DNA of 28,706 nt, taken from the NCBI GenBank assembly GCA_964621095.1, contig CAZULI010000002.1:1-28706 (forward strand), read 5' to 3'. Of the stretch, positions 2,898 through 23,806 are shown in pieces; the first letter of the stretch is position 1; the number at the start of each line of letters is the position of its first letter. A model generated the notes under the pieces. That model was not told where the DNA came from, made no database searches, and was given only the letters and a program-made list of their open reading frames with translations. Source of the stretch: an uncultured Acidimicrobiaceae bacterium (GTDB lineage: Bacteria; Actinomycetota; Acidimicrobiia; Spongiisociales; UBA5794). Position numbers and translations under genes: made by a program.

Positions 2898-2915
2898 AAC
2901 GCGGGACATACATCC

Positions 2916-6342: not shown

Positions 6343-6355
6343 CCCCGTTTGTGTC

Positions 6356-6377: not shown

Positions 6378-6412
6378 ACCGGTCGGGTGAAGTGGCCAAC
6401 CAAAGGAGATCG

Positions 6413-7192: not shown

Positions 7193-8559
7193 ACGAGTAC
7201 CTCTTGGATCCATCCCAGATGGAGACCCTTGGCATTCGCACGGTCATCGTCGCGTCCCCCGATCTCGCCGGTCGTCTGATCGGGCGACGGGTACCCACGT
7301 CGCGCTTCCCACAGGTCGTGGAGAACGGCGTGGATGTCTGTTCCTGTGTCTTTGCTTGGGACGTCAACCAGGGGTTGGAGCTCCTGGAAACGAACGTGCT
7401 CCCCCTGTGCGGCCTGCACAACGGCCTCCCCGATGTCACCCTGCGGGTCGACCTCACGACGCTTCGTCGGGCGGCCTGGCTTGATGGGGTCGCCATTTGT
7501 TTTGCGGATCCGGTCGATGTGAAGACCGGTGACCCGCTCCCACTGTCGCCCCGAGTCATGCTCAAACAGGAGTTGGCGCGGTACGCCGAACTCGGGTACG
7601 CCCCCAAGACCGGAACGGAGTTGGAGTTCTACCTCTTTCTCAACGATCAGCGCACCCTGAGAGAGGAGGGGTTCCGGGGTCTGCGCCCAACGACGGTCGT
7701 CGCGTCCGATTTCATGATCCATGAGGGAAACGCGTACGAACCGTTTTTCCAGAAGCTCCGTAGCGATCTCGCCGAAAGTGGCGTCGATGTCGAGGCCGCC
7801 CAATCCGAGTTGGGTACCGGACAGTGGGAGATGACGTTTGTGTATGGCGATCCACTCGAGATGGCTGACCGCCACGCCTTGTACAAACTCGCCGTTCGCG
7901 ACGCGGCGATTGCTGCTGGGATGTCAGCGACGTTCATGGCGCGCCCTCTCAATGTCCAACCGGGGTCGTCATGTCATGTCCACCTCTCCCTGCAGTCCTT
8001 GGACGGGGAGCAGATGTTCTGGGATGACGTCGCCGATGACCGCATGAGCACCGTGATGCGCTCCGCCATTGGTGGGGTGTTGGAGCATGCACCAGAGTTC
8101 ATGGCTTGGTACGCGCCGACCGTCAACTCGTGGCGACGTACCGTCTCAACGGAGGCCGCAGGATGGGGCCGGACCTGGGGGTTTGACAACCGAACGGTCA
8201 CGGTTCGGGTCCTTGGCCACAAACCTCAGCATCTCCGACTCGAGTTCCGACTCCCCGGTGCGGACACCAACCCGTATCTGACCTTGTCGGCGCTGCTCGC
8301 TTCGGCACGCAGCGGCATCGCGTCCGGCACCGAGTTGATGGCTCCGGTGACCGGGAACGCGTACGACCTTCCGTACGACGAGGGGATGCCGACGTCATTG
8401 CATGAGGCAACATTGGCGTTCGAGTCGTCGCGCCTGGCTGCCGAGGCGTTCGGACGCGACGTCATCGACCATCATGTCGTGATGCTCAACCATGAGTGGT
8501 CCGTCTTCCTCGCTGAGGTCTCCGCGTGGGATCTCGATCGATACTTTGATCGCATCTGA
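7189..8559 (+). CDS. Glutamine synthetase-like gamma-glutamyl-amine ligase (GlnA4/PuuA type)
   Basis: GTELEFYLF, ELGTGQWEM, GSSCHVHLSL, DNRTVTVR, EFRLPGADTNPY; GTGA overlap with the SDR; lacks GSI-type N-terminal features. Confidence 0.88.
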   Translation: MNEYLLDPSQMETLGIRTVIVASPDLAGRLIGRRVPTSRFPQVVENGVDVCSCVFAWDVNQGLELLETNVLPLCGLHNGLPDVTLRVDLTTLRRAAWLDGVAICFADPVDVKTGDPLPLSPRVMLKQELARYAELGYAPKTGTELEFYLFLNDQRTLREEGFRGLRPTTVVASDFMIHEGNAYEPFFQKLRSDLAESGVDVEAAQSELGTGQWEMTFVYGDPLEMADRHALYKLAVRDAAIAAGMSATFMARPLNVQPGSSCHVHLSLQSLDGEQMFWDDVADDRMSTVMRSAIGGVLEHAPEFMAWYAPTVNSWRRTVSTEAAGWGRTWGFDNRTVTVRVLGHKPQHLRLEFRLPGADTNPYLTLSALLASARSGIASGTELMAPVTGNAYDLPYDEGMPTSLHEATLAFESSRLAAEAFGRDVIDHHVVMLNHEWSVFLAEVSAWDLDRYFDRI

Positions 8560-8563
8560 TCGG

Positions 8564-10021
8564 ATGGAACGCCACACGTTGACGCACCCCGATCTCGTCA
8601 CCTGGATCGGTGGCGTCCCAGAACTCAGCGCCATTGAGTCGGACGCTGCACTCTTCGATCCCAACACGTCGATCCCGCTCCAGGAGTTGAGATCGTCCTC
8701 TCCGGCACAGACCGACCGGGCCATTGCAGCAGCAGCGTTCGCCCATGAGGCGGGGGAGTGGCGACGGGGTGGCGCCGAGGCTCGCTCGGTGGCGCTGCAT
8801 GCGTTCGCCAAACGTCTTGACGAGATTGCTGACCGTGTTGCGGTGCTCGATGCGATCAACAGCGGGGTACCCATCTCGGTCACCCGCTTGTTTGCCGGAT
8901 CGATGGGGGGGACCGTGCGAGCCGCGGCCGACAGGGCAGTGTCGGTGGGGGACGTCGATACCCTTCCGGCGGACGGTCGCACGGTGCAGTTGCGCAAGGT
9001 GCCGTGGGGGCCGACAGCGTTGATCCTGCCGTGGAACGCTCCTTCCGCCATGGCCACCAAGAAACTCGCGTACTGCCTTGCTGCAGGCGCCACCGCGATC
9101 GTGAAACCATCCCCGATGTCACCGTGGAGCGCCCTCCTCATCGTGGAGGCGGCCCAGGACACCGGGCTCCCCCCAGGAGTGATCAATCTCGTCCTCGGTG
9201 GCCGCGAGGTCGGCGAACAGTTGGTCGGGGACCCTCGGATCCGCGCCATCGCCATGACCGGCTCGACCCCCACGGGGAGAGGGATTGCAGCGAGGGCCGC
9301 GGCCAATCTGACGAGAGTGCAGCTGGAGCTCGGGTCGAACAACGCGGCCATCGTGCGCGCTGATGCTGACCTCGGCGCCACGGCTGCCAGCCTTGCATCG
9401 GGTGCAATGAAACTCTCTGGTCAGTGGTGCGAAGCCCCCCGCCGAGTCCTCGTGGATCACACGATCCTTCCACAACTCGTTGACGCTCTGTGTGAGGCAC
9501 TGGCAGGGATGCGCCTCGGTTCGAGTCTGGAGGATGAGACCGAGATCGGTCCGGTGGCGTTTGAGGCCCGTCGTTCGGAACTGCGGTCACAACTCTCAGA
9601 ACTCGTCGCAGGGGGAGCACGGGCGATCGAAACGGGTACGCCACCGGACGCGGGTTGGTTCGTGTCACCGACGGTGGTTGTCGGTGAGGGCATGAACCCG
9701 GAGCAGGAACTCTTCGGGCCGATCATCACCGTGCAACCGACCCGGGGCGACGACGATGCGGTCGCCATGGGAAACCAGGGTCTTCATGGCCTCGCCGGGT
9801 ATGTCTACTCCGAGAACCTTGACGAGGCGATGGCGATCGGAGCCAAACTCGTGGCGGGCGAGGTGAAGGTGAACGGGTCAAGTGTGCTTGATCTCGCACC
9901 CGACGCCGTTCAGAGTTTCTTTGGGGGGAGTGGCATCGGCGGTCACGGTGATGCGGATCTCCTGGAGTTCTTCCGAGGTACCCAGGTGGTGGGTGTGGAG
10001 GCGCCGGGCCTGCCGATCTGA
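8564..10021 (+). CDS. NAD(P)-dependent aldehyde dehydrogenase (non-acylating ALDH superfamily)
   Basis: PWNAP, TGST, catalytic Glu in LELGSN, catalytic Cys in SGQWCEA, ELFGP; ATG 4 nt after the GS-like stop. Confidence 0.92.
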   Translation: MERHTLTHPDLVTWIGGVPELSAIESDAALFDPNTSIPLQELRSSSPAQTDRAIAAAAFAHEAGEWRRGGAEARSVALHAFAKRLDEIADRVAVLDAINSGVPISVTRLFAGSMGGTVRAAADRAVSVGDVDTLPADGRTVQLRKVPWGPTALILPWNAPSAMATKKLAYCLAAGATAIVKPSPMSPWSALLIVEAAQDTGLPPGVINLVLGGREVGEQLVGDPRIRAIAMTGSTPTGRGIAARAAANLTRVQLELGSNNAAIVRADADLGATAASLASGAMKLSGQWCEAPRRVLVDHTILPQLVDALCEALAGMRLGSSLEDETEIGPVAFEARRSELRSQLSELVAGGARAIETGTPPDAGWFVSPTVVVGEGMNPEQELFGPIITVQPTRGDDDAVAMGNQGLHGLAGYVYSENLDEAMAIGAKLVAGEVKVNGSSVLDLAPDAVQSFFGGSGIGGHGDADLLEFFRGTQVVGVEAPGLPI

Positions 10022-10039: not shown

Positions 10040-10079
10040 GTGTCCTGGTGCCACCGGTGGTTTCGGGCCACCAGGACAC
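10040..10079 (+). terminator. Inverted repeat after operon A (probable terminator)
   Basis: 11-bp perfect stem GTGTCCTGGTG (10040-10050) / CACCAGGACAC (10069-10079), about 20 nt after the ALDH stop and upstream of the next promoter. Confidence 0.6.
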
Positions 10080-10137: not shown

Positions 10138-10172
10138 TTGCATCCCTTTTGTATGCCGTGTACTGTATACAA
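10138..10172 (+). promoter_or_regulatory. sigma70-type promoter of operon B with overlapping putative GntR operator 3
   Basis: TTGCAT (10138-10143)-N17-TACTGT (10161-10166). GCCGTGTACTGTATACAA (10155-10172) is 14/18 identical to operator 2, in the same register to the -10 box. Confidence 0.65.
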
Positions 10173-10199
10173 GATATCGGTGACAAGGAGGCAGGTGTC

Positions 10200-11144
10200 A
10201 TGTGTGGAATTGCTGGTCGCATCCTTGACAAGCCGGGGCCCGTGGGCGCAGATCTTGTCGAGCTGATGCAGGCCCAGCGGCATCGGGGGGCCGACTCCAC
10301 CGGGTTTGCGCTGTACGGCACACCGCTTGAGTCGGGGTACCGCGTCGGGATGTTCCTTGATGATCGGTCCCAGGCCCCGAACGTCATTGACCGGTTCGGG
10401 CAGATCATGAACCGCCATGGTGCTGACATCGTGGAGACGCCGACCCTCAACGACGCGGACACACGCCACGGCGCACTCCGGTTCACGGTGTCGGAACCCG
10501 ACAGCCCGATCGCCGATTGGACGGCTGAGTGCGACACGATCGGGGGTACTGAACTCCTCTCGGTTGGGCGCTCACTTGAGATCGTCAAGGACGACGGGGA
10601 TGCAGCACAGGTGGCGGATCGCCACGGTGTGCGTGATTTCGTGGGAACGCACGGGACAGGTCACGCCCGACTTGCCACGGAGTCGGTCGTCTCACCCATC
10701 GCAAGCCACCCGTTCTGGGCGAGGCCGTTCCCGGATGTGGCCATCGTGCACAACGGCCAACTCACCAACTACTTCCTGTGGAGGAGACGCCTCGAGCATC
10801 AGGGGTACCGCTTCAGCACCGAGAACGATTCCGAGCTGATCGCCGTGTGGCTCTCTGACCAGATGAATTCGGGGACAACGCTTGAGGAATCCCTTCGGGC
10901 AAGCATCACTGCGCTTGACGGTGTGTTCACGTTCCTTCTGTCAACGTTTGATCAGATCGGGATGGCAAAGGATCGTCTCGCCATCAAGCCCATCGTCGCC
11001 GTTGAGACCAACAGCGAGGCCGCAATGGCGACCGAGGAACAAGCGATCCGGCACTTGTACGGGGGTGAGGTCGAACCGATCAACTACGACGGTCCGGGGA
11101 TGGTCAAGGTATGGCCGGTCAGCACAGGAGTTGGGGTGTCATGA
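10200..11144 (+). CDS. mgsA: Class II (Ntn) glutamine amidotransferase, N-methylglutamate synthase subunit A / GlxB-like
   Basis: N-terminal MCGIAG (Cys1 nucleophile), GHARLATES, HPF, HNGQLTN, TENDSE; AAGGAG RBS; followed by GXGXG and FMN subunits. Confidence 0.85.
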   Translation: MCGIAGRILDKPGPVGADLVELMQAQRHRGADSTGFALYGTPLESGYRVGMFLDDRSQAPNVIDRFGQIMNRHGADIVETPTLNDADTRHGALRFTVSEPDSPIADWTAECDTIGGTELLSVGRSLEIVKDDGDAAQVADRHGVRDFVGTHGTGHARLATESVVSPIASHPFWARPFPDVAIVHNGQLTNYFLWRRRLEHQGYRFSTENDSELIAVWLSDQMNSGTTLEESLRASITALDGVFTFLLSTFDQIGMAKDRLAIKPIVAVETNSEAAMATEEQAIRHLYGGEVEPINYDGPGMVKVWPVSTGVGVS

Positions 11145-11836
11145 GTGAGATCTTGGAGATCGAAGTCGGAGATCGACCGCTACGAGAAGTCAACGCCGAG
11201 ATTCGCACGGCGGTGGAGGAGGGCCGGGACGTCGTGCTCCACGACACACGCTCCCGCCACAACCTCGCGGTCGGGCTTCCACCGGGTGGCTCGGTGACGA
11301 TCCCCGGTGGCGTTGGGTACTACTGCGGTGGGCTCAACACGGGATCACGTGTCGCCATCGGCCGGAACGCCGGTTGGGGGCTGGGCGAGGCGATGTCGGC
11401 AGGGGAGATCGTCGTGGATGGCTACGCCGGGTTGGGCGTTGGTGCATCGATGCTTGGTGGTCTTGTCCATGTGAAAGGGGACGCCGGACCGAGGGCTGGG
11501 GTCGCGATGAAGGGCGGGGACATCGTGGTGGAAGGGTCCGTGGGGTTTCTGAGCGGGTTCATGGCCCATGCAGGCCGCATCATCGTTCTTGGCGATACGG
11601 AGGACGCGGCCGGGGATTCGTTGTGGGGCGGATGCATGTGGGTGGCAGGAAACGTTCAGTCCCTCGGTGTGGACTCCAAGCTGGTCGATCCTGACGCTGA
11701 CGAGGTGGACTCCGTCGAGGCACTGTTGACCGGTCTCGGGGTTGGTGACAGCAGTCGCTCGTGGAAAAAGATCGTGTCCGGACAGAAGCTCTGGCATTTT
11801 GACGCAAGGGATGCACAAGCATGGCTGATGATTTGA
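11141..11836 (+). CDS. mgsB: GXGXG (GltB/FmdC beta-helix) protein, N-methylglutamate synthase subunit B / GlxC-like
   Basis: Repeating Gly motifs (GRNAGWGLGEAMSAG, GDAGPRAGVAMKGG); ATGA overlap with mgsA. Confidence 0.85.
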   Translation: MSEILEIEVGDRPLREVNAEIRTAVEEGRDVVLHDTRSRHNLAVGLPPGGSVTIPGGVGYYCGGLNTGSRVAIGRNAGWGLGEAMSAGEIVVDGYAGLGVGASMLGGLVHVKGDAGPRAGVAMKGGDIVVEGSVGFLSGFMAHAGRIIVLGDTEDAAGDSLWGGCMWVAGNVQSLGVDSKLVDPDADEVDSVEALLTGLGVGDSSRSWKKIVSGQKLWHFDARDAQAWLMI

Positions 11837-13218
11837 ACAACACCACAGAGAGTCCCGTGATGCTGGAGGACGGGTCGAGTTCCGATCGTCCGGTCGGAAG
11901 TGTCTCGTCGTACGACCGTGGCAAATCAAGCAAGTGGACCCCCGAGTCGATCTCTGAGATCCAGGCCACCGCACAACTGGGTCGGTACGCCATTCGAGGG
12001 TTCTCGACGTTCCACAAGAATCTCCCATCGTTGGATGATCTGACGTTTGTTCCTGCAACACTCACGAGACTCCCCCTTGAGGGGTATCGGGAGGATTGCG
12101 ATGCAACAACGGTGCTCGGTGATCGCCCGGGCCTTGTTGAAAAGCCGATCGAGCTCGCCATCCCCGTGTACATCGCTTCGATGTCGTTCGGGGCTCTGTC
12201 GGCCTCCGCCAAGGCGGCGCTTGGCAAGGGTGCCTCCAAGGTGGGCACCATGACGTGTACCGGTGAGGGTGGGATGCTTGCCGAAGAGCGTGAAGCATCC
12301 GAGACGCTGGTGTACCAGATGACACCGTCACGGTACGGGCTGGACCTCGATCACCTCCGGCGTGCCGACGCCATCGAGATCGCCGTTGGCCAGGGAGCCA
12401 AACCGGGGACCGGCGGCGTCCTCCTGGGGATGAAGGTCTCCGAGCGTGTGGCAAAGATGCGCACCCTCCCCATGGGTGTTGATCAGCGCTCCACGGTGCG
12501 TCACCCCGATTTTCTCGGAGCCGATGACCTCCAGGTGAAGATCGAGGAACTGCGTGAGGCGGTCAATTACAAGGTTCCGATCTTCATCAAGATGGGGGCG
12601 ACGCGTCCCCGCTACGACGTCGCCCTTGCAGCAAAAGCCGGCGCCGACGTCATCGTCCTCGACGGCATGGAGGGCGGAACCAACGCCGCCCCCGAGATTC
12701 TGCTCGACCACACCGGCGTGCCAACGATGGCGGCGATCCGGGCAGGCCGTGAAGCACTCGAGGACGCCGGACTCGCCGACGACGTCAAACTCGTTGCTGC
12801 CGGGGGGATCCGGTCCGGGATTGATGCTGCGAAGGCACTTGCGCTCGGTGCGGACGCCGTCATGATCGGAACCGCCGCGAACATCGCGCTCGGGTGCAAC
12901 GCGCCACGGTACGTGAAGGATTACGAAGCCATCGGAACATCCCCTGGTCAGTGTCACCACTGCCACACGGGTCTCTGCCCGGTCGGCATCCAGACCCAGG
13001 ATCCCGAACTCGAAAAGCGAATGGATGTCGACGCCGGCGCCGAGCGGGTTGCCCGGTTCCTCACGGCGATGACGATGGAGATCACCTTGATCGCCAAGGC
13101 CTGCGGCAAGTCGAGTGTCCACAACCTGGAGCCGGAGGACCTCAGGGCGTTGTCCCTTGAGGCATCGGCGTTCACGGGAGTGGCTCTGGCGGGGATCGAT
13201 CGTCCATACACGTGGTAG
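11821..13218 (+). CDS. mgsC: FMN-binding glutamate synthase family protein, N-methylglutamate synthase subunit C / GlxD-like
   Basis: MSFGALS, TGEGG, GQGAKPGTGG, DGMEGGT, AAGGIRSG, Fe-S cysteines CHHCHTGLCPVGIQTQDP. Confidence 0.88.
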   Translation: MADDLNNTTESPVMLEDGSSSDRPVGSVSSYDRGKSSKWTPESISEIQATAQLGRYAIRGFSTFHKNLPSLDDLTFVPATLTRLPLEGYREDCDATTVLGDRPGLVEKPIELAIPVYIASMSFGALSASAKAALGKGASKVGTMTCTGEGGMLAEEREASETLVYQMTPSRYGLDLDHLRRADAIEIAVGQGAKPGTGGVLLGMKVSERVAKMRTLPMGVDQRSTVRHPDFLGADDLQVKIEELREAVNYKVPIFIKMGATRPRYDVALAAKAGADVIVLDGMEGGTNAAPEILLDHTGVPTMAAIRAGREALEDAGLADDVKLVAAGGIRSGIDAAKALALGADAVMIGTAANIALGCNAPRYVKDYEAIGTSPGQCHHCHTGLCPVGIQTQDPELEKRMDVDAGAERVARFLTAMTMEITLIAKACGKSSVHNLEPEDLRALSLEASAFTGVALAGIDRPYTW

Positions 13219-13249
13219 CGGATCACAGGCAAATGAATGGAGGCCGTCC

Positions 13250-14539
13250 ATGACTGACAAACTTCTCCCCGGGACACACACGATCATTCTCGGCATTGGC
13301 GACCTGTGTGGAATCCTGCGAGGGAAGCATCTTCAGGCATCGATGTGGGAGAAGATCTCGGACCACGGCATCGCGATGGCGAGCGCCATCTTCGTCTTTG
13401 ACATGACGTGTGACATCTGGGACACCCCGTTCTCCAACATGGACAACGGGTACCCGGACCTGTTCGTCACCCCGATCCCGGGAACGCTGCGACCGGTGCC
13501 ATGGGCTGAGGGCACCATGCTCGCCTTCGGCGCTGCGACCCAGGAGAACGGCTCTCCCATACCGACCGATCCACGTCGTGCGCTCCAGAATGTGCTCGCA
13601 CGGTATGACGAGCTGGAGTATCAGGTCAAGGTCGGTGTGGAACTCGAGTTCTTCCTCCTTGACCCCGAGACCAAGGCACCCAGGGACACGGGTGTCCAGG
13701 TCTACGGCGTCGCCCGCGGTGCTCAGTTCGAACATGTCCTCGGGCCGATCCGAAACCAATGCACCGAGTTCGGTATCCCCATCGAGGTCTCCAACCCCGA
13801 GTACTCGAGCGGTCAGTTCGAGGTCAACATCCGTTACGGCGATGCGTTGACGTCGGTGGACAACGCGGTCCTGTTCCGTAGCGCGGTCAAACAAATCGCC
13901 GCCGAGCACGGACTTCTCGCCACGTTCATGGCCAAACCGTTCACCCACGAGTCAGGGAACGGGTTCCATATCCACCAGTCCCTCTGGCAGGGCGACCGAA
14001 ACGTCTTTGCCGATGGGCACCAGCTCTCTGAGCTCGGTCGGCACTACGTCGGAGGACTCCGCCAGCACATGGCGGAGTTCACGCTGTTCGGTGCCCCCAC
14101 CCCCAACAGTTTCAAGCGCCGCGCCCCCTACACGTTCTGTCCCATGAACAACTCCTGGGGAGGCGACAACCGGACCGTCGGTATACGGGCGGTGGAGGGG
14201 CGCCCGGATGCGGTCCGCGTCGAACAGCGTGACGCGAGCGCCGAAGCCAACCCGTATCTCGTGGTCGCAGGACAACTGGTCGCAGGACTGCATGGCATGG
14301 AGGAGAAGCTTGATCCGGGGCCACGAAACAACGGTGACGCCTACGCCGACACGGAGGCCCAACCGCTCCCGATGTCCATCCCGGAGGCGGTGACGGCGTT
14401 GCGTGGCTCCAAGCTTGCCGCAGAGGCGTTTGACCCTCAACTCATTGAGGTCCTGATCCAGATGGCTGAGCGGGAGGAGATGTTCCTGCGCACGAACGTC
14501 ACCGATTTTGAACGGGACCGATACTTGGAGGTGTATTGA
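13250..14539 (+). CDS. Second glutamine synthetase-like gamma-glutamylamide synthetase (GmaS-position gene)
   Basis: [53 protein letters not shown]; GGAGG RBS. Confidence 0.88.
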
Positions 14540-14838
14540 TGCGTATTGCTCGCGTGGTTGGCACGGCAACCGGGTCGGTCAAGGACCCACCGTTGACGGG
14601 CCAGACACTTCTCATCGTCGAGCCCGTGGATGCCCGTGGCGGGTCCATCGGGCCTCACGAGGTCGCCACCGACGCTGGAGTCGGCGCTGGGATCGGCGAC
14701 TGGGTTCTGATGGCGACGGGTTCGTCGGCGCGTCAACCCGGCTCGACACGGGGTGTGGCAACGGACGCTTCCGTTGTCCTCATTCTCGAGGAGCTCAAGT
14801 TGGGCGCCGAGACGACGTACCGCAGCGGTTTGCAATGA
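14539..14838 (+). CDS. BMC vertex pentamer protein (BMC-P, EutN/CcmL family)
   Basis: [15 protein letters not shown]...LLIVEP...[24 protein letters not shown]...DASVVLI is the EutN/CcmL pattern; TGATG coupling to the GS-like gene. Confidence 0.95.
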
Positions 14839-14912
14839 CCACACCAAAGAAAGCAACAAGACCCGCCGAGACGAAAAGTGATTCGATCCCGGCACAAGGA
14901 AAGGAAACGCGA

Positions 14913-15206
14913 ATGGCGGATCAGTCGAAAATGGCATTGGGCATGGTGGAAACGAAGGGGATGGCTGCAGCGACCGAAGCTGCGGACGCGATGCTCAAGG
15001 CCGCCAATGTGGAGCTCACCAGCTACGTGCAGGTTGGCGGAGGTCTCGTGACGGTGTTTATCCGGGGCGAGGTTGGTGCGGTCAAGGCGGCAACGGACGC
15101 AGGCGCCGTTGCGGCGAGCAAGATCGGTGATGTCCAGTCCGTCCACGTCATCGCCCGGCCCCATGACGAACTCCCGAACGTCATGTCCTACATCACCAGC
15201 GCCTGA
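14913..15206 (+). CDS. BMC shell hexamer (BMC-H, EutM/PduA/CcmK family)
   Basis: [22 protein letters not shown]...[23 protein letters not shown]...VHVIARPH. An alternative in-frame ATG at 14835 would add 26 aa. Confidence 0.96.
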
Positions 15207-15246
15207 GCACATGATCTCGTTCCGCCCACCCGTGGGAGGCGTCTGA

Positions 15247-16632
15247 GTGGACGCCGACCTGCGAAGCATCGCTCACGCCCGGGATTGTGCCGAACGCGCC
15301 AGCGTCGCGTTCGGTCAATTTCGTGGTGCCTCGCAGGAGGCCATTGACCGGATCGTTGAGGCAATGGCACGGGCAGCGGTCAGGGAGGCGGGGAGGCTTG
15401 GCGCCCTGGCAGCCGAAGAGACGGGGTACGGCAACGCCGAGGACAAGCGGATGAAGAACATCTACAACGCCCTGGGCGTTGCGGAGTGGCTTCGCAACGT
15501 GCGCACCGTCGGCGTGCTCTGGAAGGATGAGCGCACCAAGGTGATGGCGATCGGTGAGCCCATGGGGATCATCGCGGCGCTGATTCCGGTGACCAACCCG
15601 ACAGCGACGGTGATCTTCAAGGCGCTGAGTGCCGTCAAGGCAGGGAACGCGATCATCTGTGCCCCGCACCCGCGGGGTGTTCGCTCCGGGGTGGAGACGA
15701 CAGCGGTCCTTGCGGCTGCTGCCACCGAGGCGGGCGCGCCGCCCAACCTGGTTCAGTGTCTGAGCGAGGTCACCCTTGAAGCCACCTCCGAGTTGATGCG
15801 ACATCGCAAGACCTCGCTGGTGATGGCGACCGGTGGTGCTGACATGGTGCGGGCCGCGTACTCCTGTGGAAAGCCGACCCTCGCGGTTGGACCGGGGAAC
15901 GTGCCGGTGTACGTGGATGCGTCCAAACGTCACGAGCTTGAGGAGGTTGCCGAACAGATCCTCACCTCAAAGGCGTTCGACAACGGCACGGCGTGTGTGG
16001 CCGAACAAGCCGTGGTTGCCCACCGTGAGATCGCCCGTCCGCTTCGGGATGCGTTCAGAGCCAAAGGTGCGTATTTCTGCACCCCGTCCCAGGCCGAAGC
16101 CCTTGCCAAGGTGATGTTCAACGAACGAGGTGGACAGATCCCCACCCGAGTGGCGCAATCAGCCGCCAGGCTTGCCGAGTTGGCGGGGTTTGATGTGCCG
16201 ATGCGCACGCGGGTGCTCGTGGCTGACGCGTCAGAGGTGGGGAGAAACACTCCGCTCTCGCGGGAGAAACTCAACCCTGTGCTTGCGTTCTACGAGGTGG
16301 GATCGGTGGATGAGGGGTACCGCCTCTGTGAGGCGGTCCTGAACTTTGGTGGCCTCGGTCACAGTGCTGCGGTCCACACCGATGACGCCACGGTCAAGGC
16401 GCAGTTCTCCATGCTGCCGGTCGGCAGGCTGTTGATCAACACCCCGTGTGCGCTCGGTGGCATGGGGTACTCGACCGATCTCGAGCCAAGCTTCATGCTC
16501 GGTACCGGGACCTGGTCCGGATCGATTGTGTCTGACAACGTGACGGCGCTTCACTTGATCAACATCAAGCGGATCGCCGAAGAGACGCGGCCGTGGCGGA
16601 GTTTTGGTGAAATTGAAAGGACAATTCGATGA
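15247..16632 (+). CDS. CoA-acylating aldehyde dehydrogenase (EutE/PduP/AdhE-N family)
   Basis: PVTNPTAT, ATGGADMVRAAYSCGKP, VGPGNVP, catalytic SKAFDNGTACVAEQ, REKLNPVL, SFMLGTG; GGGAGG RBS. Confidence 0.93.
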   Translation: MDADLRSIAHARDCAERASVAFGQFRGASQEAIDRIVEAMARAAVREAGRLGALAAEETGYGNAEDKRMKNIYNALGVAEWLRNVRTVGVLWKDERTKVMAIGEPMGIIAALIPVTNPTATVIFKALSAVKAGNAIICAPHPRGVRSGVETTAVLAAAATEAGAPPNLVQCLSEVTLEATSELMRHRKTSLVMATGGADMVRAAYSCGKPTLAVGPGNVPVYVDASKRHELEEVAEQILTSKAFDNGTACVAEQAVVAHREIARPLRDAFRAKGAYFCTPSQAEALAKVMFNERGGQIPTRVAQSAARLAELAGFDVPMRTRVLVADASEVGRNTPLSREKLNPVLAFYEVGSVDEGYRLCEAVLNFGGLGHSAAVHTDDATVKAQFSMLPVGRLLINTPCALGGMGYSTDLEPSFMLGTGTWSGSIVSDNVTALHLINIKRIAEETRPWRSFGEIERTIR

Positions 16633-17255
16633 CAGGATCCAGGACCGATATCCGGGCGCTGATGCAGATCGATCGGTTGCAGCCCCGGTTTGCGGCGTAC
16701 AGCGCGGCAACCGTGCGAGGCTCCATCCCCCTTGAGGGCGACACCTTGCTCGTTGGTGAGATCGCCCCTGGGAACGCCGTGTTCCAGATCGTCGACATCG
16801 CGCTGAAGGCCGCTGAGATCGAGTCGGTGTCCCAGATCGTGGAACGCGAGTTCGGGTTCTTCATGCTCCGGTCGCCGGTCAACACCTCGATCTCGATCGC
16901 CCGTGACGCGATCCTGGAGTATCTCGGCGCAGAGATGTCGGATCGGATGAAACCGAAGGTCGAAAGCACACAACGCATCACGTCGGTGGAACCCCATCAG
17001 GCCAAGCTGCTCAACATCTGGCGGCAGGGGTCACTCGTCATCCCCGGAAGCACCCTCGGGATGCTTGAGTGTTCACCCGCTGCCTACATCACGATCGCCG
17101 CCAATGAGGCAGAGAAGGCGGCAGACGTCGACATCGTCGAAGTCAGGGCGTTGGGTCGGTTCGGACGAATGTTCATCGCAGGAACCCAGGACAGTGTCAG
17201 CACAGCCCTTGATGCTGCCACGGCCGCCATCGAAGGGACGGATGGCCGTTCATGA
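16629..17255 (+). CDS. BMC trimer shell protein (BMC-T, CcmP-like double-stacking type)
   Basis: IDRLQPRFAAY...GEIAPG...DIALKA...VEREFG and second domain SPAAYITIAANEAEKAADV...GRFGRMFIAG resemble CcmP / Haliangium BMC-T; ATGA overlap with the AldDH. Confidence 0.9.
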   Translation: MTGSRTDIRALMQIDRLQPRFAAYSAATVRGSIPLEGDTLLVGEIAPGNAVFQIVDIALKAAEIESVSQIVEREFGFFMLRSPVNTSISIARDAILEYLGAEMSDRMKPKVESTQRITSVEPHQAKLLNIWRQGSLVIPGSTLGMLECSPAAYITIAANEAEKAADVDIVEVRALGRFGRMFIAGTQDSVSTALDAATAAIEGTDGRS

Positions 17256-18424
17256 ACGTCATTGGAGAACACGATGTGAGGGCAGCAGCGGCCCGCAGCG
17301 ACGTGATCGTCGTTGGTCCGAACGATCTCCTGACACCCAACGCTCGGGATCTGGTCGCCCAGCTCGGACTGCGGATCGTTGCCCAACCGGTTGAAGCCGT
17401 CTCCACCAACGCCCCCGATCACGCGACCGCAGTGAGGCGTGTTCTGTTGCGCCGATCCCCGAAGTGGATTGCTCCCCAAGCGAAGGGTTCCACCACCGAG
17501 AGACCGTTTGAGCGGATCGCGATGGTCGGTTGCGGCGCGGTGGGCGCCGCAACCGCACACCTTGCGGCTGCCCGCCAGGCCGCCAAGAGCCTCGCACTCA
17601 TCGATCTCGTGCCAGGTCTCGCTTCAAGCACGGCTCTTGACATCGAACACGCCTCCGGCATCACGGGTTCCCCCACCACGTGCGTCGGTGGGGAGACAAT
17701 GGATCTCATCGCGGACGCCGATGTCGTGGTGGTGACCGCCGGCAAGCCACGGTCCCCTGGGATGCCACGGGCCGATCTGCGCGACATCAACGCCAAGGTG
17801 ATCGGGGGAGTCGCGGCAGCCGTCCAGGAGTACGCGCCCAACGCGGTCCTCATCGTGGTGACGAACCCGCTCGATGAGATGACGTACGAAGCGTTCCGGT
17901 CCACCGACCTCCCACGCGAACGAGTCCTTGGTATGGCAGGGACCCTCGATTCAAGCCGGTTCCGCTGGGCGTTGGCGACCGAAGCCAAGGTGCACCCGCG
18001 TGATGTGTCAGCGTTCACCCTTGGGAGTCACGGGGATGAGATGGTGCCGATTCTCTCCCTTGCAACCATCAAGGGTCGCCCGGTGACTGAGGTTCTCCCC
18101 AAGGACGCGATTGAACGGTGCGTCCAGGAGACCGTCCATGGGGGCGGCCGCGTCGTTGCCCTACGGCGGACCGGATCGGCGTCGATTGCACCTGCCCACT
18201 CCATCGTTGAGATTCTCGACGCCATGCGCGGTGTGATACCGGGACCCATTCCCGTGTCGGTCGTCCTGCAGGGTGAGTACGGCATCAAGGATGTTGTGGT
18301 GGGTGTTCCCGTTCAACTCGGGATGGGTGGTTTGGAGCGGATCGTGGAGATGCCGCTCAGTGAGGCTGAGCTCAAGATGCTCCGGGAAGCGGCAAGCGTC
18401 GTGAAGGGGCGAATGGTCCAATGA
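17252..18424 (+). CDS. mdh: Malate dehydrogenase (LDH/MDH superfamily) with ~87-aa N-terminal extension
   Basis: GCGAVG, LID, TAGKPRSPGMPRADL (Arg at the MDH specificity position), VTNPLD, GMAGTLDSSRF, GSHGD; extra N-terminal domain containing LLTPNARD. Confidence 0.85.
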   Translation: MNVIGEHDVRAAAARSDVIVVGPNDLLTPNARDLVAQLGLRIVAQPVEAVSTNAPDHATAVRRVLLRRSPKWIAPQAKGSTTERPFERIAMVGCGAVGAATAHLAAARQAAKSLALIDLVPGLASSTALDIEHASGITGSPTTCVGGETMDLIADADVVVVTAGKPRSPGMPRADLRDINAKVIGGVAAAVQEYAPNAVLIVVTNPLDEMTYEAFRSTDLPRERVLGMAGTLDSSRFRWALATEAKVHPRDVSAFTLGSHGDEMVPILSLATIKGRPVTEVLPKDAIERCVQETVHGGGRVVALRRTGSASIAPAHSIVEILDAMRGVIPGPIPVSVVLQGEYGIKDVVVGVPVQLGMGGLERIVEMPLSEAELKMLREAASVVKGRMVQ

Positions 18425-18443
18425 GGGTTCTTGGAGGTGATCG

Positions 18444-19760
18444 ATGAACAACGAAGAAATGCTTTCCGAAATACTCGATGAGCTGAAGAGTTGGAGGGAG
18501 AAGGAGGACGGCTCCCCCCGCATGAGCCAAGCTGAGGCGAAGGCGACGTATCAGGCCGGGTTCGAACGTGCCGTGGATCCCTCACGGCGGGCCCACAAGG
18601 CTGGCAGTCTCAAGGTCACCATCCTCGGCGGTGGCAACGGCGGCATGGCCATGGCTGGCCACATGGCGATTCTTGGCTACGAGATCACCATGTGGTCCCC
18701 GTTCTCGTGGGAGCTTGAACCGATCGAGGAGAAGGGGGGAGTCTCGATCATCGGTTCAGAAGTCTCCGGATTCGGCAAGGTGGCAAAAGTCACCCCCAGC
18801 ATTGATCTGGCGGTCAAAGGCGCCGATCTGATCATGATCATCGCCCCAGCAATGGCACACAAGACGTACGCCTCGATGCTGGCGCCGTTGCTGCGTGACG
18901 GTCAGGTCGTGGTGCTCAACCCGGGACGTACCGGCGGCTCGTTGGAGTTCGCCCGGACCCTCACACGAAACGCGTGTTCAGCGCGGATCGTCCTCGGTGA
19001 GACCCAGACGTTCATTTACGCCGCTGAACGCAAGGATGCGTACACCGTCGAGATCCTCAAGGAGAAGTTCCGGATGCGGGCTGCAGCGCTTCCGGCAGCG
19101 GACAACGATCTTCTGATGGATCCGTTGCGTGATCTGTATCCACAGATCGAACCTGCCCAGAACGTCCTGGAGACCGGACTCAACAATGTAGCACCCGTCG
19201 TGCACCCCGGCACGGTGCTCCTGAACACCTCGGTGCTTGAGCGCACGGCGGCAGGCGAGCCGCTCAAGTTCTACCAGGATCAGGTGACGCCGACGATCGC
19301 CACTCTCATCATGGGAAAGCTTGACCAGGAGAAGCAGAACGTTGCCAAAGCCCTCGGCCTCAAGGAGGTCTGGTCGCTGCTTGACTGGTACCGGGAGAGC
19401 TACCACATCGTGGGTGACTCGATCTTTGAGGTCATCCGAGCCAACCCGTACATTGCGGGGTTCACCGCTCCAAGCAACATCCTGGCCCAGAACCACGTCC
19501 TCGACGATGTTCCCAACTCACTGGTCCCGATCTCAGATTTCGGCAAGGTGCTCGGCGTGGCCACACCAACCATCGACTCGATCGTCCACCTCGCAAGCGC
19601 CATGTGTTCGATTGATTGGTGGGAGGAGGGCAGAACGGTGAGCGGTCTCGGGTTGGGTGGCATGTCCATTGACCACATGATCGAGCACGTTGAACGCACG
19701 GCTCTCGGCGGGAAGTGCTCGGAGTCCGGTGTGTGCCGTGCCTTCGGGTTCTACAAGTAG
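18444..19760 (+). CDS. NAD/NADP opine (octopine/nopaline) dehydrogenase family protein with ~55-aa N-terminal extension
   Basis: ILGGGNGG, LNPGRTGG, ETQTFIYA, LNNVAPVVHPG, DWYRESY, DDVPNSLVP, GVATPTIDSIVHLAS; GGAGG RBS. Confidence 0.87.
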   Translation: MNNEEMLSEILDELKSWREKEDGSPRMSQAEAKATYQAGFERAVDPSRRAHKAGSLKVTILGGGNGGMAMAGHMAILGYEITMWSPFSWELEPIEEKGGVSIIGSEVSGFGKVAKVTPSIDLAVKGADLIMIIAPAMAHKTYASMLAPLLRDGQVVVLNPGRTGGSLEFARTLTRNACSARIVLGETQTFIYAAERKDAYTVEILKEKFRMRAAALPAADNDLLMDPLRDLYPQIEPAQNVLETGLNNVAPVVHPGTVLLNTSVLERTAAGEPLKFYQDQVTPTIATLIMGKLDQEKQNVAKALGLKEVWSLLDWYRESYHIVGDSIFEVIRANPYIAGFTAPSNILAQNHVLDDVPNSLVPISDFGKVLGVATPTIDSIVHLASAMCSIDWWEEGRTVSGLGLGGMSIDHMIEHVERTALGGKCSESGVCRAFGFYK

Positions 19761-19763
19761 GGG

Positions 19764-20108
19764 ATGGCCGTGATGCAAGAGTTCTCGGGTCGACCCGTCA
19801 TCTCGGGGGAGCAGATCGAAGCAGCCGCCGAGATGGGACGTTCAGAACTGGTGATCCCTGCTGGCGCCCTCATCACGCCGCTGGCACACGAGCGGGCAGC
19901 CGCGTTGGGCATCTCTCTCAGCTCAAGCGTTGCTCCCGATCGTCACGCCGGCCACGCCGCCAGAAGAGCAGCGACGCAGGCCAAGGCGAGAGAGATCGTG
20001 GCGCGGGTGGTGGCCGCCCGGGGTGGTGACCCATCGATGGTCGATGACATGGTCAAGACCGTGATGGAGCGCATGTCGAGTAGCTGCAAGTGTGGCGATC
20101 ACCGGTAG
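19764..20108 (+). CDS. Small BMC-associated hypothetical protein (ITPxA module plus C-terminal amphipathic helix)
   Basis: Starts 3 nt after the opine DH stop. N-terminal VISGEQIEAAA...ALITPLAHERAAALGISL; C-terminal MVDDMVKTVMERM. Confidence 0.8.
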   Translation: MAVMQEFSGRPVISGEQIEAAAEMGRSELVIPAGALITPLAHERAAALGISLSSSVAPDRHAGHAARRAATQAKAREIVARVVAARGGDPSMVDDMVKTVMERMSSSCKCGDHR

Positions 20109-20152
20109 CGTTCCGGGAAGCGTTGAAGATGGCAACTCGCGTGCCAAATGCA

Positions 20153-20182
20153 GAGAAGGGACACCCGAGGGTGTCCCTTCTC
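20153..20182. terminator. Bidirectional intrinsic terminator between operon B and the convergent RRM gene
   Basis: Perfect 14-bp inverted repeat GAGAAGGGACACCC-GA-GGGTGTCCCTTCTC between convergent stops at 20108 and 20200. Confidence 0.8.
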
Positions 20183-20199
20183 CGCGTTCGCTCCAAGAT

Positions 20200-20460
20200 C
20201 TAGTAGCGCGGGCGGCGCTCCTGGCGTTCCTGTGCTTCGTTCACACGGAGGTTGCGTCCGTCCATGTCCTCGCCGTCAAGTTCCTGCATCGCCTTGCGGG
20301 CAAGATCGTCTGACATCTCCACAAACGCAAAACCGCGTGAGCGGCCCGTTTCGCGGTCGGTGATCAGGGCAACGGAGTCAACCGTACCGATCGCCTCAAA
20401 CCTCGTGCGCACTGATTCTTCAGTTGCACTCCATGGGAGGTTTCCCACGTATAGTCTCAT
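20200..20460 (-). CDS. RNA-binding protein (single RRM domain)
   Basis: RNP2 LYVGNL, RNP1 RGFAFVEM, DRETGRS, GRNLRVNEA; ATG 20460 with GGAG upstream (86 aa). Confidence 0.93.
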   Translation of the reverse strand: MRLYVGNLPWSATEESVRTRFEAIGTVDSVALITDRETGRSRGFAFVEMSDDLARKAMQELDGEDMDGRNLRVNEAQERQERRPRY

Positions 20461-20770
20461 TCTTCCGGCTCCATTTCGATGGAAAGCCCACGGCCGCTGT
20501 CTCTGCACTCCGTCGGAACTCGACTCAAGCTGAAAAATCGGGCTGGGGTTGCTAACGGGTGTGAGATTAGCCCATCGCACGTCAAGACGCACACTTCTTG
20601 TGGCGCGTTTCACCCTGATTTTCATGGCGTGTTGCGGGGGTTCATCGTTGGGTGATGGCCCGCGAATGGCCAACCAGCACGGAGCCGTCAGCGGTGCAAG
20701 CACCTGGCGAAGCGCTGCTCGTGAAGCCAACGGGACGCGTCGTGGTCACCGATGCTGCAGCCGCTGTTGG

Positions 20771-22102
20771 CTACCTTCGAACGAACCGCTGTGCCTTGAG
20801 CTCGAAGCGGGGGAGTGACCCGAGGGCGACGATCTCGATGTCTGGGCGGAGGCCCACCGCAGCTTCGAAACGGGCTCGGACTGCAGCCGTCATGGCACGG
20901 CCATCGACGCCGTCCTGGCATTCCAACTCGATCAGCAGTTCTGCCATTTCGCGCTGGGTTGTCACCGTGACGCGAAACTCCTCGATCCCATCGTGGGCAC
21001 GCAACATGTTCTCGACTGCCGCTGGGAAGATGTTGACGCCACGCACCACGATCATGTCGTCAGCCCGGCCGATCACGCCACCATCGAACCGTGTGAACGT
21101 ACGGCCACACGGGCACGGATCGGTGGTGACCCGCACGACATCCCCGGTGCGGTACCGGAAGACGGGGAACCCGATCCTGCCGAGATTGGTGATGACGAGC
21201 TCTCCCTCCCCGCCGGGTTCCACGGGTGATCCGGTTGCAGGATCAAGCACTTCAACAATGAACTCACTGTCGATGGCGTGGGTCCCGCCGGGCTGGGCTT
21301 CACACTCGAAACTGTGCGCGCCGACTTCGGATGCTCCGGCATGGTCATAGCACTTGGCGCCCCACACCGACTCGATGCGCTGTTTGGTCGCTGGCACATT
21401 CGCCCCCGGTTCACCCGCGTGGACCGTGAGCCGCATCGGGATCGTGCTCAGGTCAAACCCATCCTCCCTGGCAACCTCGGCGAGCCGTAGGGCGTAGGTG
21501 GGGGTGCAGGTCATGGCGGTCACCCCCATCTCGGCCATGAGTCCGAGACGCTGGGACGAGGTACGACCGCCCCCTGGCACCATCAGGGCACCGATGTTTT
21601 GAGCTCCGCCGACGGCGGCCCAGAACCCGATGAACGGGCCAAACGAGAACGGAACGAAGAGGCGGTCCTTCGACGTCAATCCTGCACCGGCGAGCACGAA
21701 CCCCCAGCACCGCTCCCACCAGGCCCAGCTCTCGACGGTATCGAACACCCGCAGGGGGCTGCCCGTCGTGCCGGAGGTCTGGTGGACCCGTGTGTACGCG
21801 CTCTCGGGAAATGTGCAGTTGGTGTTGGTCTCGCTCTCGGCCTGTCCTTCCATGAGCTCGGCCTTCGTGGTGAGCGGTAGCTGTGAGAGATCAGCGAGGG
21901 TGCGGATGTCACGAGGGGCGGCTCCCACCGCATCAAACTTCTTGGTCACGAACCGGTTGCTGCCGTAGGTGGCGTCCACAACCACGGCCAACTTTGACTC
22001 CTGGAGGGCGCGGAGTTGCTCCGGTTCCAGCGTCTCGGTTTCCTGGTCAAAAAAGGTGGTCCCCACAGCCACAGTGTGCTCGTTTTGGGGGTCGCTTCGC
22101 AA
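20771..22102 (-). CDS. Phenylacetate-CoA ligase family protein (PaaK-like aryl-CoA ligase)
   Basis: P-loop HQTSGTTG, YDHAGASE, FRYRTGD, GRADDMIVVRGVNIFP. True start may be GTG 22072 or 22066. Confidence 0.88.
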   Translation of the reverse strand: MRSDPQNEHTVAVGTTFFDQETETLEPEQLRALQESKLAVVVDATYGSNRFVTKKFDAVGAAPRDIRTLADLSQLPLTTKAELMEGQAESETNTNCTFPESAYTRVHQTSGTTGSPLRVFDTVESWAWWERCWGFVLAGAGLTSKDRLFVPFSFGPFIGFWAAVGGAQNIGALMVPGGGRTSSQRLGLMAEMGVTAMTCTPTYALRLAEVAREDGFDLSTIPMRLTVHAGEPGANVPATKQRIESVWGAKCYDHAGASEVGAHSFECEAQPGGTHAIDSEFIVEVLDPATGSPVEPGGEGELVITNLGRIGFPVFRYRTGDVVRVTTDPCPCGRTFTRFDGGVIGRADDMIVVRGVNIFPAAVENMLRAHDGIEEFRVTVTTQREMAELLIELECQDGVDGRAMTAAVRARFEAAVGLRPDIEIVALGSLPRFELKAQRFVRR

Positions 22103-22123
22103 CCCGATTGCGGCACGGGCGAC

Positions 22124-22152
22124 CTGCCGGCAGCAGAATCAGACGCTATCGT
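22124..22152 (+). promoter_or_regulatory. Putative promoter giving a (near-)leaderless boxC transcript
   Basis: CTGCCG (22124-22129)-N17-TATCGT (22147-22152); GTG start 8 nt downstream with no SD sequence. Confidence 0.45.
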
Positions 22153-22160
22153 GACCATAC

Positions 22161-23804: not shown

Positions 23805-23806
23805 GC

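Follow-up and report, generated by a model that had tools for sequence, protein, structure and literature searches.

We analyzed a window of 28,706 nucleotides (G+C ~62%) from an uncultured Acidimicrobiaceae bacterium, i.e., positions 1 to 28,706 of contig CAZULI010000002.1 (assembly GCA_964621095.1), and focused on an operon of 11 genes that encodes a bacterial microcompartment (BMC). By its content and its 51-69% identity to a catalogued locus, this operon is a metabolosome of the MIC2 type. Like many other catalogued metabolosomes, MIC2 has an aldehyde dehydrogenase (AldDH) and lacks a known source of aldehyde. Our analysis names a specific candidate for its signature enzyme, an NAD enzyme resembling opine dehydrogenases, together with the module that would feed it, namely a glutamine synthetase (GS)-like ligase and three MgsABC-like subunits. 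A preliminary description of the same DNA had presented the locus as an undescribed metabolosome. This must be corrected, as the locus fits the catalogued MIC2 in every item: "uncharacterized" is the right word for the type and "undescribed" the wrong one.

The 11 genes lie on the forward strand between positions 10200 and 20108. Open reading frame (ORF) coordinates and the Pfam and NCBIfam assignments agree with the overlaps and the order given in the preliminary description, from the mgsABC-like genes through the GS-like ligase, the genes of the shell and of the AldDH, and a malate dehydrogenase (MDH) gene, to the opine-dehydrogenase-like gene and a small last gene. Four gene junctions overlap (ATGA at 11141, 16629, and 17252, and TGATG at 14537-14541) and the remaining intergenic gaps are of at most 74 bp. 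The proteins of the window share 87-88% identity with those of metagenome-assembled genomes (MAGs) of Acidimicrobiia, and an orthologous operon with the identical set of 11 genes is present in relatives whose flanking regions differ. In line with the preliminary description, no window gene scanned carries a domain of EutBC, PduCDE, glycyl radical enzymes, or aldolases, nor one of B12 or radical-SAM proteins; more generally, the signature enzymes of the EUT, PDU, GRM, and PVM-SPU types, including class II/DeoC aldolases, are missing among these genes.

In the parts of the catalogue that describe it (Sutter et al. 2021, Nat Commun 12:3809, Supplementary Data 2), MIC2 counts 22 loci, from Proteobacteria and two Actinobacteria, with neither function nor signature enzyme assigned. 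These loci encode a pfam00171 AldDH lacking an encapsulation peptide (EP), a protein of the 6PGDH superfamily whose N-terminus forms a short helix, a pfam00120 GS, and a pfam02866 lactate/malate dehydrogenase with a BMC-specific N-terminal extension of ~70 residues showing EutQ-like homology. RMM1 is given there as the closest characterized type by AldDH phylogeny. The window has the MIC2 shell set, an EP-less AldDH, an MDH with a EutQ-like extension, a helix-bearing protein of the 6PGDH superfamily, and a GS. When it is compared with the AIOL_ MIC2 locus of 'Rhodobacter' oscarellae/lobularis (L088), identity reaches 69% for BMC-T (AIOL_004301), 67% for BMC-H, 60% for the AldDH, 51% for the GS, and 53% for the MDH over its full length, extension included. 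Across the two catalogued loci L088 and L089, the ranges are 68-69% for BMC-T, 60-63% for the AldDH, and 51-54% for the GS. The type to which the locus belongs has no assigned signature enzyme that could take the place of the one proposed here, and on this point the preliminary description stands. In the catalogue's actinobacterial member, Thermocrispum agreste, the spacing of the locus tags suggests a P-H-x-x-T order of shell genes. A MIC2 locus of Hoeflea adjoins dimethylformamidase genes.

The supplements of the catalogue hold no entry for PF02317, PF01645, PF01493, or PF13522, and their description of MIC2 omits mgsABC. The link to the Mgs families is therefore absent from its list of hidden Markov models. 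These genes are, to judge from the loci compared, not universal to MIC2, because proteobacterial MIC2 loci have none within 10 kb and some relatives that have GS and opine-dehydrogenase genes without a BMC lack them. With mgsABC present and an opine-dehydrogenase-like protein from a different, CENDH-like subclade, the window is by its gene content a distinct variant of MIC2.

The distribution of this variant was studied in 84 loci (L numbers) gathered around homologs of the opine-dehydrogenase-like gene and scored with the window proteins. The homologs split without exception into two groups, distinguished by a sequence motif and by genomic context. The canonical group (51 loci, 37-43% identity, mostly Bacillota and other anaerobes) keeps the motif R-Y-x-x-E-D, and GS-like, mgs, AldDH, or shell genes are found near none of its 51 members. 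The GS-linked group comes from Acidimicrobiia, Thermoleophilia/Gaiellales, Deltaproteobacteria/Thermodesulfobacteriota, Thermincola, and Thermoanaerobacteraceae. It was analyzed as a clade of 34 distinct loci in which the homolog is ~44% or more identical to that of the window. A GS-like gene lies within 10 kb of the homolog, usually adjoining it, in 25-26 of these 34 loci. All 15 shell-bearing loci of the clade with a length of at least 12 kb have both an acylating AldDH and mgs genes, with the gene order differing among loci. The linkage of GS, mgsABC, opine dehydrogenase, AldDH, and shell genes spans Actinomycetota, Thermodesulfobacteriota/Deltaproteobacteria, and Bacillota, and the gene set of the window is found again, in shuffled order, in Acidimicrobiia, Thermoleophilia/Gaiellales, Deltaproteobacteria/Thermodesulfobacteriota, and Bacillota. 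Hence, the co-occurrence of Mgs, opine dehydrogenase, and BMC genes that the preliminary description had proposed to look for exists in at least three phyla.

The shells themselves vary. In Thermincola ferriacetica, the trio of GS, opine-dehydrogenase, and mgsABC genes lies inside a metabolosome with a complete core, together with PduL, PduS/PduT-like proteins, and a tandem BMC-T(s). In a deltaproteobacterial MAG and a Thermoanaerobacteraceae MAG, it is accompanied by EutJ-like, PduS/T-like, and APC-permease genes. Phosphotransacylase (PTAC) genes belong to the EUT/PDU-like background of the Thermincola and deltaproteobacterial loci. The trio is thus present in MIC2-like and in EUT/PDU-like backgrounds and is therefore best seen as a variable "signature" module; these gene neighborhoods indicate that it moves between shell backgrounds, as expected of such a module. 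In two loci, mgsA adjoins a gene of the Peptidase_C26 family (gamma-glutamyl hydrolase type). In the Thermincola locus (L024), two MgsC-like genes (16924-18339 and 19940-21169) flank mgsA and mgsB, one of them directly after BMC-P. Two Thermoleophilia loci without a BMC have the GS and opine-dehydrogenase-like genes a few kb from genes of a B12-dependent diol/glycerol dehydratase (L004, 14964-20410; L085, 17164-21174). A Peptidase_S58 gene belongs to the dehydratase neighborhood of either locus, and a reactivase gene to that of L004; the proximity could reflect synteny within the lineage or a functional link.

The closest relative of the opine-dehydrogenase-like enzyme in the PDB is Arthrobacter CENDH (1bg6, E 1e-65). 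The AlphaFold2 (AF2) model (pLDDT 88, pTM 0.84) has a helix at residues 3-21, a disordered stretch at 23-42, and then a CENDH-like core that superimposes on 1bg6 with a TM-score of 0.93 at 33% identity. Other neighbors in fold include ketopantoate reductase and D-mandelate dehydrogenase, the alcohol and hydroxy-acid dehydrogenases reaching a TM-score of ~0.7 at 15% identity. The catalytic His is kept, as H254 with its Asp/Glu partner, in all aligned members of the clade (H202/D297 in CENDH, H212/D329 in octopine dehydrogenase, OcDH). The motif R-Y-x-x-E-D is replaced, by N-H-V-L-D-D in the window and by N/H/Y/G-H/N/F-x-x-D-D/E in the aligned clade members. Its Arg (R324 in OcDH, R292 in CENDH) is lost in 31 of 31 aligned clade members and kept in 51 of 51 canonical homologs. 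Conversely, Arg212 is present in most clade members and almost never in canonical homologs, and Arg162 is invariant in the clade and new relative to canonical opine dehydrogenases. In OcDH, the motif Arg has been described as a "sensor" of the NADH pyrophosphate, not as a binder of carboxylate (PMC2924402). The idea that the lost Arg binds the carboxylate of pyruvate or another keto acid finds no support in that paper, and the loss is not used here as evidence for a substrate without a carboxylate. The change of motif marks, at the level of sequence, a new subfamily, and does not alone reveal the substrate. The last ~20 residues of the clade members contain a conserved GGxCxExGVCR with two Cys, which is missing from CENDH and modeled with low confidence.

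The N-terminus of the enzyme follows the presence of a shell. In all members linked to a BMC, the sequence begins as an amphipathic helix (D-x-I-V-x-A-V-V-x-E-L type) and continues into a linker rich in Pro, Ala, and Gly, and all members without a BMC lack both. The contrast is found even among sister sequences of Thermoleophilia, where L015 and L016 have the helix whereas L004, L017, and L020 start exactly past the linker. Such a helix and linker are typical of encapsulation peptides, and together with the predicted helix of the AF2 model they support the view that the enzyme is a tagged cargo, the preliminary description having placed it inside the shell. The opine-dehydrogenase-like enzyme is a candidate signature enzyme of the BMC.

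The AldDH (461 aa) is of the acetylating EutE/AdhE type. Its second residue aligns to position 1 of TIGR02518 and it has no terminal extension. The preliminary description had spoken of an MDH fusion, and this is borne out. The protein scores above the cut-off of an MDH family of NCBIfam, matches MDH entries of the PDB (E 1e-73), and carries at its specificity position, in a PRSPGMPR loop, the Arg that is specific to MDHs. Its Ldh domains begin at residue 88, after an extension of ~85 residues. Residues 2-44 of this extension align to residues 3-45 of Escherichia coli EutQ (BLASTP E 3e-4; hhalign profile comparison E 3.5e-5), which supports the prediction that the MDH is tethered to the shell by a domain like EutQ's N-terminal domain (EutQ-N).

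A domain of the same kind opens the 114-aa protein encoded by the last gene. Its N-terminus matches the MDH extension with an hhalign probability of 97% (E 1e-10) and EutQ residues 2-47 with E 1.6e-5. Direct BLASTP against EutQ gave nothing, and the homology emerges only in profile comparisons and by way of the MDH extension. Neither the 114-aa protein nor the extension matches a Pfam family, even at E = 10. For the 114-aa protein, there is also no NCBIfam family, Foldseek gave no significant match, and the PDB sequence matches are to low-complexity helical repeats. The AF2 model, which rests on a shallow alignment (the homolog search gave three close relatives), shows two helices within a small alpha/beta domain, then a linker of low confidence and a pair of long helices. 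According to a 2025 study (PMC12487888), EutQ binds to the shell by its helices H1/H2 (residues 9-41) and to the encapsulation peptides of the cargo by its helices H3/H4 (62-99). The modeled protein shares the four-helix layout of the EutQ N-terminus. Because of the profile homology to EutQ-N and of this EutQ-like layout, the reading of the 114-aa protein as a EutQ-N-type linker between shell and cargo, devoid of a cupin, is well supported, and the small adaptor of the preliminary description gains in substance. The protein is kept after or near the opine-dehydrogenase gene in nine related loci. It ends, like its homologs, in a conserved CxC(G) (CKCGDH in the window) that may be a metal or disulfide site.

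The feeder genes resemble those of the N-methylglutamate pathway. In methylamine utilizers, this pathway consists of GmaS, MgsABC, and MgdABCD, the last being a folate-linked enzyme resembling sarcosine oxidase. The identity of the window proteins to homologs from Paracoccus aminophilus pAMI6 is 58% for MgsC, 37% for MgsB, 32% for MgsA, and 31% for the GS (GlnT). The MgsA-like subunit is predicted from its domains to hydrolyze a gamma-glutamyl amide. The GS-like protein has PDB relatives that include GmaS (7cql) and glutamate-methylamine ligase (9qur), and scores below the cut-offs of TIGR03105, GlnA, and PuuA; its score with TIGR03105 (GmaS, type III GS) is 247 bits for a cut-off of 470. It is predicted, from this similarity, to be a gamma-glutamyl-amine synthetase. 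MgdABCD, DAO, and genes of the sarcosine oxidase family are missing among the scanned window genes, whereas a gene of the sarcosine oxidase type is found near the mgsABC-glnT cluster of pAMI6.

These elements can be assembled into a pathway. A small primary amine (C1-C3) would be taken up and ligated to glutamate at the expense of ATP by the GS-like enzyme in the cytosol, giving a gamma-glutamyl amide, which the MgsABC-like complex, also cytosolic, would convert into an N-substituted L-glutamate and ammonia, as in the N-methylglutamate pathway. This secondary amine would enter the shell, where the EP-bearing enzyme would use NAD+ to release glutamate and an aldehyde. The acylating AldDH would turn the aldehyde into an acyl-CoA, the shell-tethered MDH would re-oxidize the lumenal NADH with oxaloacetate, and the 114-aa protein would join cargo to shell. 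We regard this reading, a MIC2-type organelle equipped with an N-alkylglutamate module that leads from amine to aldehyde to acyl-CoA, as having a little less than an even chance of being right. We infer every chemical step in it, and likewise the side of the C-N bond that is oxidized, the substrate, the set of enzymes inside the shell, and co-transcription. Possible substrates are methylamine (which would give formyl-CoA via formaldehyde), ethylamine, amino alcohols, and amino acids. Of the pathway put forward in the preliminary description, the link between mgsABC, GS, opine dehydrogenase, AldDH, and shell is conserved across phyla, while chemistry, substrate, and regiochemistry keep their hypothetical standing. 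That pathway is a reasonable hypothesis, now better supported and not established.

A stronger version goes beyond this locus. The CENDH-like clade might be an unrecognized BMC signature enzyme, an NAD-dependent N-alkylglutamate dehydrogenase, which together with the GS-like ligase and MgsABC would provide a B12-, radical-, and O2-independent route from primary amines to an encapsulated aldehyde, in at least two shell backgrounds and at least three phyla. We hold this for possible, although on balance doubtful. In one form of it, a methylamine organelle would confine formaldehyde and trap it as formyl-CoA, the enzyme replacing the folate-linked N-methylglutamate dehydrogenase and an oxaloacetate/malate shuttle regenerating lumenal NAD+.

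Several observations weigh against the N-alkylglutamate pathway. To our knowledge, all characterized opine dehydrogenases oxidize the carbon that bears the carboxylate and release an alpha-keto acid, not a plain aldehyde. A cleavage of N-alkylglutamate in the manner of nopaline would yield 2-oxoglutarate and the amine, i.e., a futile cycle. What the lost Arg does is ambiguous. The window lacks a phosphotransacylase, and the recycling of CoA is therefore unexplained, and the MDH is missing in about one third of the shell-bearing loci. The proteobacterial MIC2 loci L088 and L089 have no mgsABC within 10 kb, and the protein in their opine-dehydrogenase slot is 27-28% identical to that of the window; Glu replaces its catalytic His, and its N-terminus is very short. 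They encode instead a divergent FAD amine oxidase of the MSOX/MTOX (N-methyltryptophan oxidase)-like kind (4271-5413 in L088, 4248-5384 in L089), a family of secondary-amine oxidases, and a RidA imine deaminase (11792-12196 and 11829-12242). This points to secondary-amine or imine chemistry as a trait shared by the two sub-variants of MIC2. Some Thermoleophilia loci without a BMC pair the GS with the opine-dehydrogenase-like gene in the absence of mgsABC. Lastly, we found in the literature searched no paper that ties BMCs to opine dehydrogenases, N-methylglutamate, or gamma-glutamylation, and neither a follow-up on MIC2 nor biochemistry for any of its components.

The module could also perform canonical opine chemistry. 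The starting compound would then be an amino acid, or else a gamma-glutamyl amino acid that the SDR, the second GS-like ligase (GS1), and the non-acylating AldDH1 encoded upstream of the operon derive from an amino alcohol. MgsABC would turn it into an N-(carboxyalkyl)glutamate, a true opine, which the opine-dehydrogenase-like enzyme would cleave to glutamate and an oxo-acid or oxo-aldehyde (such as glyoxylate, pyruvate, or malonate semialdehyde) before the AldDH and MDH steps. The nearest solved relative, CENDH, cleaves N-(1-carboxyethyl)-amino acids to pyruvate, and SDR genes often flank the opine-dehydrogenase-like gene. The upstream block combines its SDR, GS-like, and AldDH genes with no gamma-glutamyl hydrolase, and its end product would therefore need an amidase of the MgsA type. 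Moreover, in L004, which has no BMC, genes for a 2-oxoacid dehydrogenase (E1/E2) directly follow mgsC, at the AldDH slot of the BMC variants, which hints at a keto-acid product in that locus and is a further point against the release of a plain aldehyde. Yet, the clade has lost the motif common to all canonical opine dehydrogenases sampled, the AldDH is closest to acetaldehyde dehydrogenases, the Thermincola variant has a phosphotransacylase of the PduL type, typical of short acyl-CoA products, and the closest relatives of the operon lack the upstream block. We consider canonical opine chemistry unlikely.

It is rather improbable, too, that the GS-like and MgsABC-like proteins serve nitrogen handling, as re-assimilation of ammonia or amine or as a parallel cytosolic route, while the opine-dehydrogenase-like protein, as an ordinary alcohol or hydroxy-acid dehydrogenase of the 6PGDH superfamily, converts an alcohol or amino alcohol into the aldehyde, or else the signature enzyme is encoded elsewhere. 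Such a division of labor would suit the proteobacterial MIC2 loci, which have the GS, no nearby mgsABC, and an opine-dehydrogenase-like protein devoid of the catalytic His, as well as the pairs of GS and opine dehydrogenase that exist without mgsABC and L086, where the enzyme occurs with SDRs and an amidase and without a GS. Ketopantoate reductase and D-mandelate dehydrogenase among the fold neighbors are also compatible with it. However, mgs genes are present in each of the 15 shell-bearing loci of the clade, across phyla and shell backgrounds, a Peptidase_C26 gene of the gamma-glutamyl hydrolase type adjoins mgsA in two loci, the enzyme is far closer to CENDH than to alcohol and hydroxy-acid dehydrogenases, and no other aldehyde-generating enzyme was found among the scanned window genes. 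Finally, that an amine/glutamate cluster and a shell cluster became neighbors by chance and form no functional unit is refuted by synteny and extremely improbable: the junctions are tight, the operon recurs in relatives with different flanks, contrary to the absence of synteny that the preliminary description had considered, and the recurrence of the gene set in at least three phyla excludes chance juxtaposition at the level of gene content.

Table 1. Features of the window, with positions, strand, and the evidence for each
Feature	Positions	Strand	Evidence
GntR/FCD transcription regulator	612-1310	-	Pfam GntR+FCD
Operon A, Liv-type ABC transporter	1296-6342	+	Pfam, NCBIfam
Operon A, SDR	6392-7192	+	Pfam, NCBIfam
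Operon A, second GS-like ligase (GS1)	7177-8559	+	Pfam, NCBIfam
Operon A, non-acylating AldDH (AldDH1)	8492-10021	+	Pfam, NCBIfam
Candidate promoter/operator	10138-10172	+	TTGCAT, then inverted repeat TTGTATGCCGT/ACTGTATACAA at 10149-10172
MgsA-like class II (Ntn) glutamine-amidotransferase subunit	10200-11144	+	Pfam GATase_6/7, starts MCG
MgsB-like subunit	11141-11836	+	Pfam GXGXG
MgsC-like FMN-binding glutamate-synthase-domain subunit	11821-13218	+	Pfam Glu_synthase, 320 bits
GS-like ATP-dependent ligase	13250-14539	+	Gln-synt_C, without Gln-synt_N
BMC-P pentamer (vertex) shell protein	14539-14838	+	Pfam EutN_CcmL; NCBIfam CcmL/EutN-like
BMC-H hexamer shell protein	14913-15206	+	Pfam BMC; EutM-like
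CoA-acylating AldDH	15247-16632	+	NCBIfam AdhE N-terminal and EutH_ACDH models, E 1e-140
BMC-T(dp) double-stacking tandem-domain shell protein, CcmP/CsoS1D-like	16629-17255	+	Pfam BMC; CsoS1D_N+BMC architecture; CcmP-like, 186 bits
MDH (LDH-like) with N-terminal extension	17252-18424	+	Ldh_1_N/C; NF004863, 324 bits vs 283
Opine-dehydrogenase-like NAD enzyme	18444-19760	+	Pfam Octopine_DH (PF02317), 112 bits vs gathering score 30
114-aa linker candidate	19764-20108	+	No Pfam match; EutQ-N-like H1/H2 domain, linker, two long helices, C-terminal CxC
Hairpin, probable (bidirectional) terminator	20147-20188	.	Between convergent genes, 20-nt arms, no T-tract

The three shell genes in Table 1 are the only ones among the scanned window genes. 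A strong Shine-Dalgarno sequence (AAGGAGG, 10185-10191) precedes the first gene of the operon. The promoter that the preliminary description had placed at 10138 is partly sustained: the TTGCAT and the adjoining inverted repeat are kept 5' of the orthologous operon in L001 and L005 (~87% protein identity), but the TTGCAT gave no match to a sigma-70 site in a consensus scan, and it stands as a conserved motif, a candidate promoter. Motifs of the form GAATAC..ATAC, related to the repeat at 10149-10172, occur near the GntR/FCD regulator gene. The terminator announced at 20153 corresponds to a strong hairpin (-33.4 kcal/mol, z = -5.9), which the consensus terminator scan missed because it has no T-tract. 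A perfect inverted repeat of 11 bp (10040-10079), directly after the stop codon of the upstream AldDH gene, folds weakly better than shuffled sequences (z = -2.1) and may be a terminator between the two operons. The Rfam scan revealed no riboswitch upstream of the operon, its sole match in the window being a tRNA elsewhere (27813-27885, reverse strand, 67 bits).

In L001, a divergent gene directly upstream of the orthologous mgs-BMC operon encodes a GntR to which the product of the regulator gene is 77% identical. The module has GntR/FCD genes at its flank in L003, in L004, and in the mgsABC-gmaS cluster of Paracoccus as well. The protein is therefore a probable regulator of the operon. Operon A (1296-10021) separates it from the BMC operon in the window and is missing in the closest relatives; it is possibly accessory and outside the conserved core. 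Transporters of the Liv type also come after proteobacterial MIC2 loci. As to the substrate, binding proteins were uninformative, and so were permeases, which are of the APC family with weak similarity to ethanolamine permease, all far below cut-offs.

Downstream, the operon converges with a gene for an RRM-domain RNA-binding protein (20200-20730, reverse strand). The following segment (20771-25249) contains genes of the aerobic benzoyl-CoA (box) pathway: a PaaK-like aryl-CoA ligase gene (20771-22102, reverse strand), divergent from boxC (22161-23804; TIGR03222, 870 bits for a cut-off of 712) and boxB (23807-25249; TIGR03225, 847 bits for a cut-off of 499), with no BoxA seen. A gene fragment of the AbiEii toxin family (28315-28635, reverse strand) lies at the end of the window.

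The catalogue's MIC2 thus holds sub-variants of at least two kinds that differ in their enzymes. Should the proposed chemistry be true, the locus would offer a cofactor-cheap deamination of amines within a shell, which would use ATP, FMN, and NAD and dispense with B12 and radical SAM. It would also be a natural case of a dicarboxylate shuttle that recycles lumenal NAD, and would bring a stand-alone linker protein of the EutQ-N type, useful in BMC engineering. If the chemistry fails, the locus stays an ordinary member of an uncharacterized catalogued type.

Among known systems, the N-methylglutamate pathway is the closest to the feeder genes. The genes for MgsA, MgsB, MgsC, and GS are colinear in the window with the mgsABC-glnT(gmaS)-FCD cluster of pAMI6, and both have the three-subunit synthase architecture (GATase II, GXGXG, FMN), the N-terminal Cys of MgsA, and an FCD/GntR regulator. 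They differ in that the amide-handling parts of the window, i.e., GS and MgsA, are distant, and that the slot of MgdABCD is filled by an opine-dehydrogenase-like enzyme of the NAD type, linked to a BMC. The PuuA-D, Ipu, and Streptomyces GlnA2-4 pathways also open with a GS-like ligase, and their partners have counterparts in related loci (Peptidase_C26, SDR, AldDH) and in the upstream block of the window (SDR, AldDH). However, they oxidize the far end of the gamma-glutamylated molecule, hydrolyze it afterwards, and involve no MgsABC, opine dehydrogenase, or BMC. With the opine dehydrogenases of known structure (1bg6 and Pecten octopine dehydrogenase, 3c7a), the window enzyme shares the fold, the Rossmann domain, and the pair formed by the catalytic His and an acidic residue, whereas its N-terminal helix of the encapsulation type and its genomic context set it apart.

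The EUT metabolosome and RMM1, the metabolosome for aminoacetone/aminopropanol, pass an aldehyde derived from an amine to an acylating AldDH within a shell, as proposed for the window, and EUT employs for tethering a EutQ-N-type shell-binding domain like those predicted here. Unlike EUT, the window has no EutBC, and the cupin/acetate-kinase domain of EutQ is absent. Unlike RMM1, it has no class III aminotransferase and no amino-alcohol kinase (APH) among its scanned genes. Both types further differ from it by their phosphotransacylase, and the predicted recycling of NAD in the window relies on the MDH rather than on an alcohol dehydrogenase. Where the proteobacterial MIC2 loci L088 and L089 encode an MSOX-like oxidase and a RidA, the window has neither of these and encodes the 114-aa linker protein; it adds mgsABC, and its CENDH-like enzyme keeps the catalytic His and carries a much longer encapsulation peptide and linker.

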